From: Candidatus Hodarchaeota archaeon
GTDB taxonomy: Archaea; Asgardarchaeota; Lokiarchaeia; Sigyniarchaeales; SOKP01
Length of the DNA stretch: 64,000 nt
Direction of reading: 5' to 3'
Assembly: GCA_048886685.1 (NCBI GenBank)
Contig: JBHLKM010000013.1
Location: 32,001 to 96,000, forward strand
Positions 21,520 to 27,890 of this stretch are shown here, one piece after another. Below the pieces are notes generated by a model. That model did not search any database. It was not told the DNA's origin and saw nothing but the letters and a program-made list of their open reading frames with translations. Numbering within the stretch: the stretch's first letter is position 1; each line of letters opens with the position of its first letter. The position numbers and the translations under genes are program-made.

Positions 21520-24444
21520 TTGACATCTTTAACTTTAGACACTGAAAAAATTGAAACATTGATCCTTAATGGATATAATGAAGAGGCAGCTGAAGATATA
21601 TTTAGTTTTATTGAAGATTATCAAAATCATCATGATAAAGAACTCATTTACAGATGTCTTAGTTTATTAAACCTGATTTGTGATAAATCTCCTTCAATAG
21701 CAGAAAGAACTGTAAAAAATGTGAAGAATTTCATTAATGACTCGGATTCTTGGATAAGATTGGTTTCTTTGGAGATCTTATATCAAATCAGTATGTTTAG
21801 ACCAAACTTGTTAATAGATTTAATCGATAAAATCAGAGGACGATTATTTGATCAAGATCCAACTGTGAGAAGATTAACTGTAAAAATTATTGGAAATTTG
21901 ATATTAACACTTCACATTGATTTAGAAGAAATTCACGAAATAATCGAGGAATACACAGAAAAATTGATGGATAATGATTGGAAAGTAAAACTTAATGTAA
22001 TAAAGACTATACAAAAAATACTAAATCAAGATTATACTAAAATCAGAAACTTGGAACCACTACTATCAATGGTAATAATCAATCTTAGAGATGAAGATGA
22101 TGATGTTGCAAAAGCTGCCACTGAGCTCCTTAAGATTCATGGCACATACTTCTTATCTAAAGAAAAATTATTCTATATTCTACTCAACCTTCTTTATAAT
22201 GAAAAAAATAGAGTCAAAGAATTAATTATTTGGTTATTTGGAGAAATTGGTAAAGAAAAATCTTCTGAAATAATATCGATTATCCCAAAACTAATAAATC
22301 TCTTAAAAGAAAATGATTATCGCATCCAATCAAAAGTAATAGAAGCTCTCGTAAATATCGCAGAAAATAATTTTGACCAAATATGGGCTAATTTATTAAA
22401 TTCAATGTCAGAAACGGGAGATTCTTATTATAGAAATTCATTAATAAATGCGTTATATCAGCTCTGTCAAAAAAATATTACAGAAATATTTCCTTATTTC
22501 TTCGAAGAATTAGAGAATCCTTCTGAAAACATTAGAGAAGGAATTGCCCTTGTGTTTAAACGTTTATTTGAAGAATATCAAATTGAAATTGAAAATGAAA
22601 TAACGAGAATATTATATCGATTAGAGTCGCGTTATTGGAGAGAGAGAAAACAAACAATTAATCTTTTAAACCACATATGTTTCATTTTAAAAAATCATAA
22701 AATTGCTGTCTGGATTACAATTGAATTGAATAATTCTTTACAAATTGAAAAAGATCCAGAAGTGAAGGAAGAGATCTATTTCACATTAGAAAATATTAAT
22801 AATAACTTTAAAAAAATTGATTCTACAATAAAACGAATAAATTATGAATTAGCATTATTTCATAATAAAATTTTAAAGTTTCAAAAAATTCCAGCACAGT
22901 TCAGAGAAAAACTAAATTCCTATATTGAGAATTTTAAATTTAACGACACAGAAGTTCAATTAAATCGAAAATATAGTAAAATTCTTAAGAAAATCAAAAA
23001 GTTTGATAATCTAATTAATAAATTTGACTATAAAAGGTTAGCTTTTGAATTAATTGAAGAATGGGAAGATACTAAAGTCCAGATTATTGAAGAATTAAGC
23101 ATTATAAAAAGTTTCATCTCTCAGATATGCGAAGAGAAAAAACAAGAGTTTATCTCTGATTTACATCAAGAAATTAAGTTATTAGATAATCGCATAAGTA
23201 TCCTAAAAGCTGAATTTGATTACATAAAAGAAAATGAACTTGAAATGAATGTTAACACTGGTGAAAATGAAACATTTACTTATATAACCCAAATAAGAAG
23301 GAAGCTATTTAAGTTAGATGGAGAAATAAGAGAATTAATGATAAACAATGTAGAGTTTGATGAGATCTTTAAAGATCTGGTAAGAAAATGGGTTTCAATA
23401 AAAATTGAAATTCAGGAATATTTAATTGATTTAGACAGACAATTTAAGACTATAAAAGATGATTTAGTCGACTATATGCTACAAAGTAGAGTCGCAGGGG
23501 AAATATCTGATACTGAAGAAATAAACGGGATTGATAATGTACTTAGATTTCAACTCCTTCAGGGACATATCCAATCGATTATTACAGAAAGAATCGAAGG
23601 AATTAAAAAACTCAATGATAATTTTGAAACACTCTTATCAAAATTAGAATTTTTAATAAAAACTAATGAGTTTAGTGATGGTCAAAAGTTATTAGAAATG
23701 AATTCCAGACAAATCCAGAATTACATAGCGGAAACTGATAAACAAATTGAAAATATACTCGGTAAAGAGAAATTATTGGAAGATAATAATGTATTTAACT
23801 TATATGTGAGACCATACATTAACAAATTAAACACTTCAAAAGAATTATTGATAAATCGACTTAAAGATTTCATGCGAAAGGGAAACGATAAACTGTATTT
23901 AAATCAAATTAAGTATTATTCGAAGATTAGTAATCCGATAAATTTAGATTTACTCTCGAAATTTTTAAATATTAACACAGAGCAACTAAAAGAAACTGCT
24001 CTTAAATTCATCAACAATAATAAGCTTAATGCCAAAATTGTAAATGAAAAATTATTATTTGATCAAATCGAATCTGATATTACAGATTCTAAAGACGTTT
24101 TATTTTTTAAAAATATTAAGACAATTGGTAATGAAATATATTTGAACTTCAAACTAACTAATCCTTCAAATTTTGATTTTCGAGATTTTCAAATTTCTCT
24201 AAAAGTACCAACTTATGTTAATATACAGAGAAAACAAAGCTTCCCAAAATATCTACAGTTAAATGAGTTAAAACCTGGTAGCGCATTTAAATTTAATTAT
24301 GTCTGTAAGATTGATAAACAAAAAGAACTTAAGAAAAATCTGTTTGATCCGACAGCAGATGAAATTAAACTTGAATTATTCTACAAAGATCAATTCAACA
24401 ATACAAGAAAGACAACTAAACATATCGATTTATTTATCCCATAA
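21520..24444 (+). CDS. HEAT-repeat / helical / PCI-like wHTH / Ig-like appendage protein
   Basis: HEAT repeats (D.DSWIR, DQDPTVR, DNDWKVK, DEDDDVA, ENPSENIR); INLDLLSKFLNINTEQL..FINNNKLNAKI; C-terminal beta-sandwich. Confidence 0.75.
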   Translation: MTSLTLDTEKIETLILNGYNEEAAEDIFSFIEDYQNHHDKELIYRCLSLLNLICDKSPSIAERTVKNVKNFINDSDSWIRLVSLEILYQISMFRPNLLIDLIDKIRGRLFDQDPTVRRLTVKIIGNLILTLHIDLEEIHEIIEEYTEKLMDNDWKVKLNVIKTIQKILNQDYTKIRNLEPLLSMVIINLRDEDDDVAKAATELLKIHGTYFLSKEKLFYILLNLLYNEKNRVKELIIWLFGEIGKEKSSEIISIIPKLINLLKENDYRIQSKVIEALVNIAENNFDQIWANLLNSMSETGDSYYRNSLINALYQLCQKNITEIFPYFFEELENPSENIREGIALVFKRLFEEYQIEIENEITRILYRLESRYWRERKQTINLLNHICFILKNHKIAVWITIELNNSLQIEKDPEVKEEIYFTLENINNNFKKIDSTIKRINYELALFHNKILKFQKIPAQFREKLNSYIENFKFNDTEVQLNRKYSKILKKIKKFDNLINKFDYKRLAFELIEEWEDTKVQIIEELSIIKSFISQICEEKKQEFISDLHQEIKLLDNRISILKAEFDYIKENELEMNVNTGENETFTYITQIRRKLFKLDGEIRELMINNVEFDEIFKDLVRKWVSIKIEIQEYLIDLDRQFKTIKDDLVDYMLQSRVAGEISDTEEINGIDNVLRFQLLQGHIQSIITERIEGIKKLNDNFETLLSKLEFLIKTNEFSDGQKLLEMNSRQIQNYIAETDKQIENILGKEKLLEDNNVFNLYVRPYINKLNTSKELLINRLKDFMRKGNDKLYLNQIKYYSKISNPINLDLLSKFLNINTEQLKETALKFINNNKLNAKIVNEKLLFDQIESDITDSKDVLFFKNIKTIGNEIYLNFKLTNPSNFDFRDFQISLKVPTYVNIQRKQSFPKYLQLNELKPGSAFKFNYVCKIDKQKELKKNLFDPTADEIKLELFYKDQFNNTRKTTKHIDLFIP

Positions 24445-24654
24445 ATTTGTATAACGAATTAAACTCTTCTCGATTTTAAATATTGTTATAAATTTGAAAT
24501 AGCATTTTTTCCTCCATATAACTTTTTATAAGAAATTTGCTTATCTTTTTAGTGAATTTATTTATTTTTTCAATAAATTATATGAAAAAGATTAATATAT
24601 TCATAATTCTAAATTAAGATACTAATCATATGATTTAAAAAATTGAGGTGAAGG

Positions 24655-25686
24655 ATGCAAGAGTTAGAGAGTTATCGATTAACATTGCAAACGAAACTTT
24701 TTGGCTGAAATTGTAAACTCGACGCGGAAAAATTAGACAAGCTACTGTCCAACGTTGGATTAAAAGGTGATATTGAGGATTCTTCTGTAATTCTAGTACC
24801 TGGTACTGATCTTGCCATGGTAAAAAACATTGATATTTTCACTCCAATCATAGATGAGCCAGAAATCATGGGAGAGATCGCTGCTGCCAATGTAACTAAC
24901 GACATTTTTGCACTAAACGTATTAAACGTTTCAGGAATGCTTGTATTCTTAGGAATGAAGAAAAATATGCCTATGTACATCGCTGAAGGCTTATTAAAGG
25001 GAATCAAAAATTTCATGGAAAACAAGATAAACTCCAAAGTCCTTGGTGGTCATACTATATATTCAGAATGGCCGTTAATAGGTGGCGAGGCTTCTGGATT
25101 TGTAGATAAAAACAAGATTATTAGAAAAAACTATGTTGATAAGGGAGATATACTAATACTAACCAAACCTGTAGGAAATCAAGCCATCATGGCAGCATAT
25201 CGTCTACAAAAAAACAATCCCGCTCTTATAGAGAATTATTCAACATCAGAAATTGATACTTCGATTGATTTAGCAGTTGAATTAATGACTAAACCACTTC
25301 AAGATGTAGTAGAAGTTATACATTCTTACTCTGACGTTAAATTTGTTCACTCAATGACAGATGTCTCTGGATTCGGTTTAGCAGGTCATTTAAAAGAGAT
25401 GCTACAAAATTCTAAACTTTCAGCGACTATTAACCAAGTGCCTATTATTAAATTAACTAGAGAATTGGCTGATGATTTTGGCTATAAATTTAATTCATGC
25501 GAAATGCCAGAAACTGCCGGTGGAATGCTCCTCTCTGTAGATCATAAACAAGCAGAAGAGTTCTCAGAACGACTCATAAAGTTTGGTGTCCCAAATTGGA
25601 TTATTGGATCAATCGATAACGTTCACGAGGCTAAATATGTTCACGTTTCTGAAGATGTTGAACATATTGAAATAACAAAATTCTAA
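24655..25686 (+). CDS. selD: Selenophosphate synthetase, selenoprotein (Sec at codon 18, TGA 24706-24708)
   Basis: GAGGTG SD, ATG 24655, YRLT...FG-TGA-NCKL in frame with DIFTP, NDIFA, GGHT, TDVSGFGLAGH, ETAGGML. Confidence 0.93.
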
Positions 25687-25758
25687 CGATGTCGAGGAAA
25701 TAAGCAAAAACACATCATTGTGGGTGCTTATTGAGAATTCTGTTGCCCAACAGCATCG
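25687..25758 (+). promoter_or_regulatory. SECIS element (eukaryote-like, AGGA/GA core)
   Basis: AGGA-A-ATAAGC-AAAAA-CAC..GTG-GGT-GCTTAT-T-GA-G; near-identical to the element after the second selD. Confidence 0.8.
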
Positions 25759-25984
25759 AAAAATATTGATAGCTTTTGTTATTTTATTATTTTACAACTT
25801 TCTTTTCTTCCCGTAAATTATAAATTCAATTCTATTTATTCTTATTTATTGAAATTATCGATAGATAATATCGAAAAGATTAATTAATATTTCCTATTAT
25901 TTAAGAAATATATTAAATGGATTTAATAAAAAATAATTGTATAATATTACATACTCAAAATCTTAATTTCAGTGTGAGGTGATT

Positions 25985-27013
25985 ATGCCTAAAGAGTCAG
26001 ACTATAGATTGACAAAACAAGTGAAAATTTTCGGATGATCGTGTAAGTTAGGTGCAAATGAATTAAATGATTTACTTGAGAAAACTGGTCTAGCTGGAGA
26101 TATCGAAGATGCTGCTATTGTTCCTGTTCCGAATTCTGATATCGTTCAAGTGAAGAATTTAGATATCTTTACCCCTATCGTTGATGAACCGGATATTATG
26201 GGGCAGATTGCAGCATGTAATGTAACAAATGACATATTCGCTATGAATGTTCCTGAAATTTCCGGAATGTTGGTATTTTTAGGGATTAGTACAAAAACTC
26301 CAATGAAGATAGCAGAAGGAATATTAGAAGGAATTAAATACTTCATGGAGAAAAAAATCAACTCGAAAGTTGTAGGAGGTCATACAATCTACTCAGAATG
26401 GCCATTAATTGGCGGAGAAGCTTCGGGATTCGTCAATAAAAACGCCATTATTTATAAACAAGGAGCTAAAAACGGAGATAAGCTATTATTAACTAAACCT
26501 ATAGGTTTACAACCTATAATGGCATCCTACAGGATTTTAAAAGATATGCCAGAGATGCTTGAAACATATTCTGAAAAGCAACTTAGAAAATCAATAAAAC
26601 TCGCAATAAAAATAATGACAAGTTCGAATCAAGATGTTGTAAAAACGATTCATTCCTTGGATGATTTTTCATTTATTCATTCAATGACAGATGTTACAGG
26701 GTTTGGTCTGGCGGGGCATCTATTAGAAATGCTTCAAAACTCTGATTTATCCGCAATTATTGAGACCATACCCTCCATTAAGCACTCTCAAAGCCTTGCT
26801 GAGGATTTGGGTTATGCATTTGATGAATGTGAATGCGCAGAAACTGCTGGTGGTATGCTTATGGCTATTGATCCTTCAAATATAGAAGAATTTTCTGACA
26901 TTCTTTCAGAAAAAGGAATTTCAAATTGGATTGTAGGTACAATTGATACAGTAACTCCTGGACTTGTGAGAATTTCAGAGAACGTTGAGAATATAGAAAT
27001 TACTAATTTTTAA
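25985..27013 (+). CDS. selD: Selenophosphate synthetase paralogue 2, selenoprotein (TGA 26036-26038)
   Basis: GAGGTGA SD, ATG 25985, YRLTKQVKIFG-TGA-SCKL in frame with ORF 26150..27013. Confidence 0.93.
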
Positions 27014-27081
27014 CGATGTTGATGATATAAGCTAAAACACATTATAGTGGGTGCTTATTGAAATTTCCACCTGCGAGGTGG
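27014..27081 (+). promoter_or_regulatory. SECIS element (eukaryote-like, AUGA/GA core)
   Basis: ATGA 27022-25, stem ATAAGC/GCTTAT, unpaired AAAA, apical CAC/GTG, TGA 27059-61, then hairpin CCACCT/AGGTGG. Confidence 0.88.
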
Positions 27082-27095
27082 CTTCAAATTTGCAA

Positions 27096-27890
27096 TTATA
27101 TTCTTTCTTTAATTTCCCCTTTGAGGTTTAAAACTATTTCTCTTATTTCAGATAAAGCTTTATCAACCAATTCTTCACCATGTTCTAAATTAAAAGCAGT
27201 AATAGAAACCTCAACCAAAACGGAGAGACCAATTTTAGGATGGGTTTTGATCCATAATTGAGGATATTTTTCTTCTAACTCACTAGTATATGGAGCAATT
27301 TGGCTTTCTCCAATACCGGAGAAAAGAAATCCTTTTTCGATGAACTTACCTTTCTTTTCTTTTAAAATTGGATTAATAATATTTCTAAACATTGACTTCA
27401 TCTCTGCTGGTACTCCTGGAAGTATAAAAATTGTTGTATTTTTTTCTTTAATTTTCACCCCTGGGGCAGTACCTACCGTATTTGGTAAAGGTATGGAGCC
27501 TTGAGGGAGATATGCCATTTTTTTTCGTTCTTTTGTCATTCCCTCAAGTTTTAAAATTCCTCGTTCATACGCATGTTTGTAAGTTTTCTTTATAGAATTG
27601 AGAGCATGTTCATTAAGTACCAATTTTCTTTTTAAGCCAAATGCTATTCCCTCCAAAGTCATATCATCAAAGGTTGGGCCCAATCCTCCCGAAGTAATAA
27701 CCAAGTCTGGACTTCGACTCAAAATTTCTTGTATTGTACTAGAAATTACATTCAGGTCATCTCCTACCGTTGAAATTCTTTTTAGTTGATGACCATAGCG
27801 AGCAATCCTTTTTGCCATCCAATTTGAATTGCTATCAAGAGTTTTCCCGATTAAAATTTCGTTTCCAATTACGAGTATTTCTGTATCCAT
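27096..27890 (-). CDS. CinA-like molybdopterin-binding-domain protein
   Basis: IGNEIL.G...DSN, GGLGPTFDDMT, GTAPG, LPGVP.EM. Confidence 0.9.
   Translation of the reverse strand: MDTEILVIGNEILIGKTLDSNSNWMAKRIARYGHQLKRISTVGDDLNVISSTIQEILSRSPDLVITSGGLGPTFDDMTLEGIAFGLKRKLVLNEHALNSIKKTYKHAYERGILKLEGMTKERKKMAYLPQGSIPLPNTVGTAPGVKIKEKNTTIFILPGVPAEMKSMFRNIINPILKEKKGKFIEKGFLFSGIGESQIAPYTSELEEKYPQLWIKTHPKIGLSVLVEVSITAFNLEHGEELVDKALSEIREIVLNLKGEIKERI

Follow-up and report, generated by a model that had tools for sequence, protein, structure and literature searches.

Selenophosphate synthetases (SelD or SPS) that themselves contain selenocysteine (Sec) are known from Lokiarchaeota, in which the gene is accompanied by a type II-like selenocysteine insertion sequence (SECIS) (Mariotti et al. 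2016, PMC4989117). In a later survey, 51 Loki-/Thorarchaeia have at least two selD genes, with elements resembling the type II eukaryotic SECIS (eSECIS) (Huang et al. 2024, PMC11227280), and the main text of that paper gives AUGA_AA and GUGA_GA as the only variants of the core. Among eukaryotes, the SelT SECIS of Toxoplasma gondii and Neospora caninum has a GGA/GA core, which is the sole listed exception to UGA/GA (PMC2647825, citing Novoselov et al. 2007). The locus described here lies in a 64,000-nucleotide (nt) stretch of Candidatus Hodarchaeota archaeon (GenBank assembly GCA_048886685.1, contig JBHLKM010000013.1, positions 32,001 to 96,000 of the forward strand), which we will call the window. 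Whereas the 2016 report describes one SPS per genome, assembled from fragments, this genome has a tandem pair of selD genes, for which we will use the terms c1 (upstream) and c2 (downstream). The most probable reading, to which we assign a probability of about 0.78, is that c1 and c2 are two functional Sec-SelD genes from an old duplication, each with its own SECIS, and that the AGGA core of the c1 element is a private substitution.

The two genes, their Sec codons, and their ribosome-binding sites are placed as follows, in window coordinates.

24655–25686, + strand: selD paralogue c1, selenophosphate synthetase of the GUNCK type; ATG at 24655, TAA at 25684–25686, 343 amino acids
24706–24708, + strand: UGA Sec codon 18 of c1, in FGUNCK; the sole in-frame TGA when TGA is translated as U
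24645–24651, + strand: Shine-Dalgarno-like GAGGTGA of c1, read from the sequence, 3 nt upstream of ATG 24655
25985–27013, + strand: selD paralogue c2, GUSCK type, the ancestral-type copy; ATG at 25985, TAA at 27011–27013, 342 amino acids
26036–26038, + strand: UGA Sec codon 18 of c2, in FGUSCK; the sole in-frame TGA, in the same alignment column as U18 of c1
25976–25982, + strand: Shine-Dalgarno-like GAGGTGA of c2, read from the sequence

Both proteins score above the curated cut-off of 125 bits with the selD profile TIGR00476 (179.2 bits for c1 and 198.5 bits for c2), and both contain the AIR-synthase-related domains AIRS (PF00586) and AIRS_C (PF02769). A HMMER alignment to E. coli SelD (3u0o) places U18 over the catalytic Cys17 and K21 over Lys20; the U18 column holds Thr in human SPS1 and Cys in Leishmania SPS. 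Across 47 aligned sequences 53 residues are invariant, including G17, U18, C20, K21, D60, D67, N79, D83, and D236, and c1 and c2 each retain all 53, although the two proteins are only 60% identical. We take D60, D67, N79, D83, and D236 to be ATP- and metal-site residues, from general knowledge of SelD structures. U18, C20, and K21 are present in every intact c1 and c2 sequence examined, and the 17 codons preceding the c1 Sec codon are kept as protein in relatives. Judged from their sequences, c1 and c2 are intact genes for Sec-type SelD, with predicted enzyme activity. A third selD candidate in the genome (C1:48561-49310) was rejected because it is an AIR-synthase relative of the HypE/ThiL-like kind and lacks the Sec/Cys motif.

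These results agree with an earlier note on this DNA, which had placed a Shine-Dalgarno motif and an ATG at both genes (GAGGTGA is found 3–4 nt upstream of each ATG), had put the in-frame TGA of codon 18 at the catalytic position, and had regarded the copies as two diverged, intact Sec-SelD enzymes. The note had also remarked that the list of open reading frames (ORFs) truncates both genes, and plain ORF calling does shorten c1 to 24817–25686 and c2 to 26150–27013.

The genome that holds the selD pair is 100% complete by marker genes, has a size of 4.4 Mb, and contains the archaeal Sec-decoding set of tRNA-Sec, SepSecS, PSTK, and EFSec; the earlier note had made its proposal depend on tRNA-Sec, SepSecS, and EFSec. 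The tRNA-Sec (63 bits) and the adjoining SepSecS gene (483 bits) score above their cut-offs. The EFSec-like gene, 4 kb from SepSecS and tRNA-Sec, scores just below its own (237 against 242 bits), and the PSTK-like gene is below the cut-off (136 against 290 bits) and is still the best match in the genome. Three of these genes form a cluster (G000:C1:219573-226340), in which the tRNA-Sec lies ~200 nt from SepSecS and the EFSec-like gene ~4 kb further on, an arrangement that resembles the tRNA-Sec/EFSec linkage in Lokiarchaeum (2016). ARAGORN finds no tRNA within the window itself; the tRNA-Sec sits on another contig.

Directly after each selD gene lies a SECIS whose parts are listed below.

25687–25758, + strand: c1 SECIS, 98.2 bits with covariance model R1; helices backed by covariation in 39 relatives
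c1 SECIS, lower part: closing helix P1, 25687–91 with 25754–58; C-stem, 25692–93 with 25735–36; bulge G-A-G, 25694–96
c1 SECIS, middle part: tandem G.A pairs, 25697–98 with 25733–34; P2, 25699–705 with 25726–32; then the A-run
c1 SECIS, remaining hairpins: mini-stem, 25711–13 with 25720–22; side hairpin, 25740–53
27014–27086, + strand: c2 SECIS, 84 bits with R1; AUGA core, 27022–27025; side hairpin, 27067–27081

In both elements P1 begins 1 nt after the stop codon and the xxGA core 8 nt after it, and the parts follow in the order xxGA, AUAAGC/GCUUAU, A-run, CAC/GUG, UGA, and second hairpin. The c1 core is AGGA (25695–25698), with the variant G at 25696. Covariance model R1, which was built from relatives, has no match in the 4.4 Mb genome outside these two sites. 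The P1 helix of c2 carries one U.U mismatch (GAUG against CUUC), whereas most species have GAUG/CAUC; this mismatch is conserved in a subclade (G017, G003, G104, and G089).

The structure of the element is supported by covariation. An alignment of 39 c1 and c2 3' untranslated regions (UTRs), ~75 nt in length, supports five helices, with 95.6% of the cells forming pairs and 9 pairs altered on both sides, and slid-register and shuffle controls all score far below the real alignment. P1, usually GAUG/CAUC, closes the element (alignment columns 7–11 with 75–79). It is followed by a C-stem of 2 bp (columns 12–13 with 55–56), whose pair 13–55 is CG in 28 sequences, UA in 9, and UG in 2, and is unpaired in none. 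After the C-stem come a 3-nt bulge, N-A-U, and tandem G.A/A.G pairs that are invariant, and the upper part consists of helix II (AUAAGC/GCUUAU), the unpaired A-run, and a 3-bp mini-stem. The side hairpin (columns 60–62 with 72–74) follows the 3' GA and precedes the 3' strand of P1, and its pairs exchange CG/UA for GC/AU. Because covariation supports a structure with three arms, the second hairpin is the third arm of the SECIS.

The earlier note had described a near-identical stem-loop ~8 nt after each stop codon, with an AGGA core in c1 and an AUGA core in c2, and had read it as a eukaryote-like SECIS in the 3' UTR of both genes; the stem-loops and cores are as it described them, and the elements are conserved. 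Its second hairpin is likewise present but is not a separate element, and the span that it gave, 24655–27081, holds both genes but ends too early, since the c2 SECIS runs ~5 nt further, to ~27086. A scan of the UTRs with SECIS models, which it had proposed, succeeded with the custom model R1 but not with Rfam: no Rfam family matches at gathering score in the window, and no SECIS family matches at E values up to 10 in 25600–27200, where there are just chance snoRNA-like matches.

By sequence and covariation the element can be read as a canonical kink-turn, with the C-stem leading into a three-way junction. A canonical kink-turn of the L7Ae-site type, or k-junction, shares with it a C-stem ending in a covarying C-G/U-A pair, a 3-nt bulge, tandem G.A/A.G pairs, and an adjoining three-way junction, and all of these are found in the c1 and c2 elements at the level of sequence and covariation. 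In this register the AU of AUGA would correspond to bulge positions L2 and L3. We propose that each mRNA recodes its own UGA18 as Sec through the SECIS in its own 3' UTR, and that the core would be read by a kink-turn-binding protein. To our knowledge, no SBP2 is known in Asgard archaea. The kink-turn and three-way-junction reading constrains models of the SECIS binder.

The three-armed layout extends beyond these sequences. In a selection of selD 3' UTRs taken from other genera, and in a divergent c2 element (G011), the three arms recur in unrelated sequence, and R1 gives only 19–26 bits for four of these elements. Type I-like selD elements, which have a long helix II and an AAAA loop and lack the mini-stem, occur in the G011 c2 gene (L026:79-161) and in single-copy genera (L102, L107, and L109). 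One of them has an AUGA..AA core, and all retain the closing helix and the side hairpin. Since type I-like and type II elements are both present, the SECIS type has been swapped within one gene family. A descriptor scan of the present genome gives six type I SECIS candidates (contigs C1, C2, C6, C7, and C14), all with AUGA, most of which can be folded with the closing helix and with the side hairpin on the 3' side. Therefore, the layout is not special to selD.

Those relatives that carry a name are metagenome-assembled genomes (MAGs) of Lokiarchaeial Asgard archaea, under the labels Promethearchaeota or Promethearchaeia. In a first sample, both genes are found in the same order and with one TGA apiece in 20 of 23 relatives from the genus, and the other families of the order have a single Sec-selD each. 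In a class-wide survey of 159 genomes, most of the 51 from this genus have two selD copies, as do roughly half of the 42 from a second genus in the family; all other genera have a single selD. In the second genus the upstream copy likewise has GUNCK and the downstream copy GUSCK. For one c2 orthologue (G109:C1:758848-759897), two in-frame TGA codons are reported instead of one.

In a tree of 73 selD sequences, 28 c1 orthologues from both genera form one clade with full support (100 in the Shimodaira-Hasegawa-like approximate likelihood ratio test, SH-aLRT), and the c2 copies form another clade together with the single-copy selD of the other genera of the family (SH-aLRT 95). The stem of c1 is long compared with that of c2 (0.25 vs 0.07), and 12 positions are nearly fixed for different residues in the two copies, e.g., N/D19 vs S19 and L215 vs N215. 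Since c1 of the two genera forms one clade, c1 is an old orthologous lineage. On this phylogeny the duplication appears to predate the split of the two genera, with c2 as the ancestral-type copy and c1 as the faster-evolving and losable one. The second selD has its own GUNCK signature, lies upstream of the ancestral copy, and has kept its own SECIS.

Judging by gene content and the tree, c1 seems to have been lost repeatedly. It is absent from three species, G012, G014, and G022, which have c2 alone and are nested within the c2 clade, and no remnant of c1 is found within 1.5 kb in these genomes. In G019, an insertion of 31 nt immediately behind the Sec codon (L040:1470-1506) puts c1 out of frame; the ORF after the insertion is intact, as is the SECIS (92.6 bits). 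The insertion may have disrupted the gene recently, or it may stem from misassembly. The possibility that it is a bulge-helix-bulge intron was considered and rejected, as folding gave no clear support. The two copies of G017 (L022) are discordant, with c1 grouping with G000 and G003 and c2 with G002 in a distant c2 subclade (SH-aLRT 97-98), which points to recombination of one copy, or its transfer, between members of the genus, or else to a chimeric MAG.

The one feature that sets the c1 element apart from its orthologues is a single base in the core.

25696, + strand: U-to-G change, AUGA to AGGA, at kink-turn loop position L3; U in 74 of 75 elements

The core census covers 75 distinct complete selD SECIS of the genus, pooled from three alignments, and contains AUGA 72 times and GUGA, UUGA, and AGGA once each, the last being the c1 element of the window. 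Every other c1 orthologue examined has AUGA. This includes the closest genome relative, G017 (c1 protein 87% identical), in which the stretch differs only by U for G, and the nearest relative of all, the metagenome contig L051 (c1 protein 91% identical). Because all other c1 orthologues have AUGA and AGGA occurs once in the 75 elements of the genus, AGGA is a private change on a terminal branch. In the sister genus and in other genera the first base of the core varies, and U-G-A is unchanged; UUGA is a common selD core in the sister genus and in two further genera. UUGA cores were recorded in the second-genus c2 elements L095, L096, and L097, in L105, L108, and L110, and also in L066:1427-1511. 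Any of A, G, or U can precede UGA in the core, and the U of UGA is replaced once in ~75 elements.

This distribution bears first on the proposal of the earlier note that the AUGA and AGGA elements differ in strength by design, and that the two Sec-SelD enzymes thereby make up a selenium-responsive module with a hierarchy or feedback between them. Both paralogues have been retained over long times, a Sec-containing SelD inherently depends on itself, and GGA/GA cores do exist in Toxoplasma, all of which would suit such a module. A designed difference would be expected to be kept in close relatives, but L051 and G017 have AUGA, and AGGA is found in none of the other sampled c1 orthologues. The note had itself held that a core unique to this genome would count against its proposal; because AGGA is unique in this way, the hierarchy fails as a designed module, and we consider it very improbable. 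The survey of relatives suggested in the same note bore out the conservation of the tandem pair and not that of the AGGA core, which is confined to this genome. AGGA is at most a natural point mutant, and there is no evidence of a regulatory device.

A second explanation is that the U-to-G change inactivates the SECIS, so that c1 translation ends at UGA18; c1 would then be a pseudogene in the making, with c2 as the working copy. In all other elements xUGA keeps its U, and c1 is dispensable in other genomes, as shown by its loss in one subclade and by the 31-nt frameshift in G019. The c1 terminal branch also has a slightly raised proportion of non-synonymous changes. On the other hand, the c1 ORF is wholly intact with all invariant residues, the ratio of non-synonymous to synonymous substitution rates (dN/dS) between c1 and L051 is 0.10 at a dS of 0.46, and the terminal branch with AGGA also shows a compensatory change in the side hairpin of c1, from C-G to U-A. 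GGA/GA cores are natural in the SelT of Toxoplasma and Neospora. A very recent change would be compatible with each of these four observations, and we regard a newly disabled c1 as unlikely.

A third explanation is that G is not the true or dominant base at 25696, being either a sequencing or assembly error or a minor allele from a mixed population. The G is a singleton at an otherwise invariant site, and a Logan contig (L052, run SRR30758825) equals window 24655–25695 exactly and ends one base before the variant, as a branch of the k-mer graph at 25696 would make it do. This end point is a weak hint of heterogeneity. Short-read graph contigs end for many reasons, and of the four ends of L052 and L112, both Logan contigs of this strain, three fall on a start or stop codon or no more than ~10 nt away from one, which makes the coincidence less telling. 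Further Logan look-ups returned a contig starting at 27012 when the downstream gene was used and no match when c2 was used from an internal ATG. An artefact or a minor allele is a possibility to be kept in mind rather than a probable one, and G at 25696 is probably a real variant of the genome.

Several points weigh against two functional genes with a private, tolerated AGGA. Non-synonymous changes number 16, beside 28 synonymous ones, on the c1 terminal branch and 5, beside 18, on its sister; the proportion is somewhat higher on the former, but not significantly so (Fisher p=0.27). The otherwise invariant U argues that the G is harmful and that this strain may fail to make c1. A sequencing or assembly error, or a minor allele, is also conceivable at this base, as discussed above. 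Co-transcription of c1 and c2, which is possible, would let the c2 SECIS serve both genes. If the G is real, we think that the AGGA element keeps some activity, by a narrow balance of probability; such activity is conceivable because a GGA/GA core is natural in eukaryotic SelT. A home-made descriptor for other GGA-core SECIS in the genome gave one match with type I features (C16:43756), which was rejected as a chance match because an ATPase-like ORF on the opposite strand encloses it.

Taken as two functional genes with a private core variant, the locus would have the following history. The duplication would have occurred before the split of the two genera and left c2 as the housekeeping, ancestral-type copy and c1 as an accessory copy that can be lost. 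The U-to-G change at L3 would be recent, would have arisen on the terminal branch, and may still be polymorphic in the source population. Its effect would most likely be neutral to mildly weakening, rather than part of an evolved pair of strong and weak elements.

Since the paralogues are long-lived and diverged, some division of labour between them is possible. Extra dosage or robustness of the selenophosphate supply is the default role for c1, and a specialisation of c1 is possible in view of the 12 nearly fixed differences and the long stem, without supporting gene context. A stronger form of this idea is that c1 has been neofunctionalised and supplies a selenium pathway distinct from Sec-tRNA synthesis. 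The distinct c1 clade would suit it together with those same differences, and the text of Huang et al. (2024, PMC11227280) raises a possible ‘new function’. A search of the genome for SelU and YqeC (SenA and SenB were not searched for) found no homologue, c1 keeps all invariant residues, including the catalytic Sec, Cys20, and Lys21, and the genes flanking the selD pair, which encode a HEAT/adaptin-N-like protein, a MoCF-domain protein, and dehydratases, have no selenium link. We find a neofunctionalised c1 distinctly improbable. An unlikely combination is also that AGGA is an active kink-turn SECIS segregating against AUGA and that c1 is specialised beyond bulk Sec synthesis; if true, the segregating cores would provide a ready pair of alleles for asking what reads the Asgard SECIS core. 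The flanking gene directly upstream of c1 (window 21520–24444, + strand) encodes a 974-amino-acid HEAT/armadillo-repeat protein that matches the adaptin N-terminal region. Eukaryote-like repeat proteins of the HEAT/armadillo type are typical of Asgard genomes.

When compared with the eukaryotic SPS1/SPS2 (SEPHS1/SEPHS2) pair, the locus shares two SelD-family paralogues per genome and an asymmetric divergence after duplication. In eukaryotic SPS1, in contrast, the catalytic Sec/Cys has been replaced (by Thr in human), whereas c1 and c2 both keep Sec18, Cys20, and Lys21. The parallel to the SPS1/SPS2 split that the earlier note had drawn fails because both copies keep Sec.

The c1 SECIS and the SelT SECIS of Toxoplasma and Neospora (PMC2647825) both have a G in place of the otherwise invariant U before the sheared GA. 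The SelT core is conserved in two species, whereas the AGGA of c1 is a variant of a single genome with activity that is predicted at most. For the set of Asgard type II eSECIS-like elements, which have an AUGA..GA or GUGA..GA core, c2 conforms and c1 departs from the core at the U; in all other features examined (helix II, unpaired A, mini-stem, and lower stem), c1 has the form of the set. The GGA-core SelT elements are reportedly active in cells.

The closest described counterpart is the ‘SPS lokiSECIS’ of Mariotti et al. (2016, PMC4989117), with which the present elements share a catalytic Sec, a SECIS that follows immediately on the stop codon, the AUGA..GA kink-turn core, the short main stem, and the extra apical stem of the type II-like form. 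With the elements of Huang et al. (2024, PMC11227280), the locus shares multiple Sec-selD genes per genome and the type II form, and the lower-stem motif given there, G[A/U]G_C[U/A]C, corresponds to GAUG/CAUC here. AGGA and UUGA cores are not mentioned in the main text or the text-form supplements of that paper, its SECIS table aside, and the ‘AGGA’ strings in those supplements belong to protein alignments only. Its text has no statement that we could find on tandem order, two orthologous clades, or a third arm, and the searchable text of both papers does not mention a side hairpin or junction.

Much of the system has therefore already been published, namely Sec-SelD with a type II SECIS in 2016 and multiple Asgard selD genes in 2024. 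To this, the present analysis makes modest additions: the orthology and polarity of the two copies, the loss of c1, apparently more than once, the covariation-backed kink-turn register and third arm, UUGA as a frequent variant of the core, and a single AGGA mutant. Sec-SelD with a type II-like SECIS has been proposed as a bridge between the archaeal and eukaryotic selenocysteine systems, a picture to which the tandem pair adds detail.

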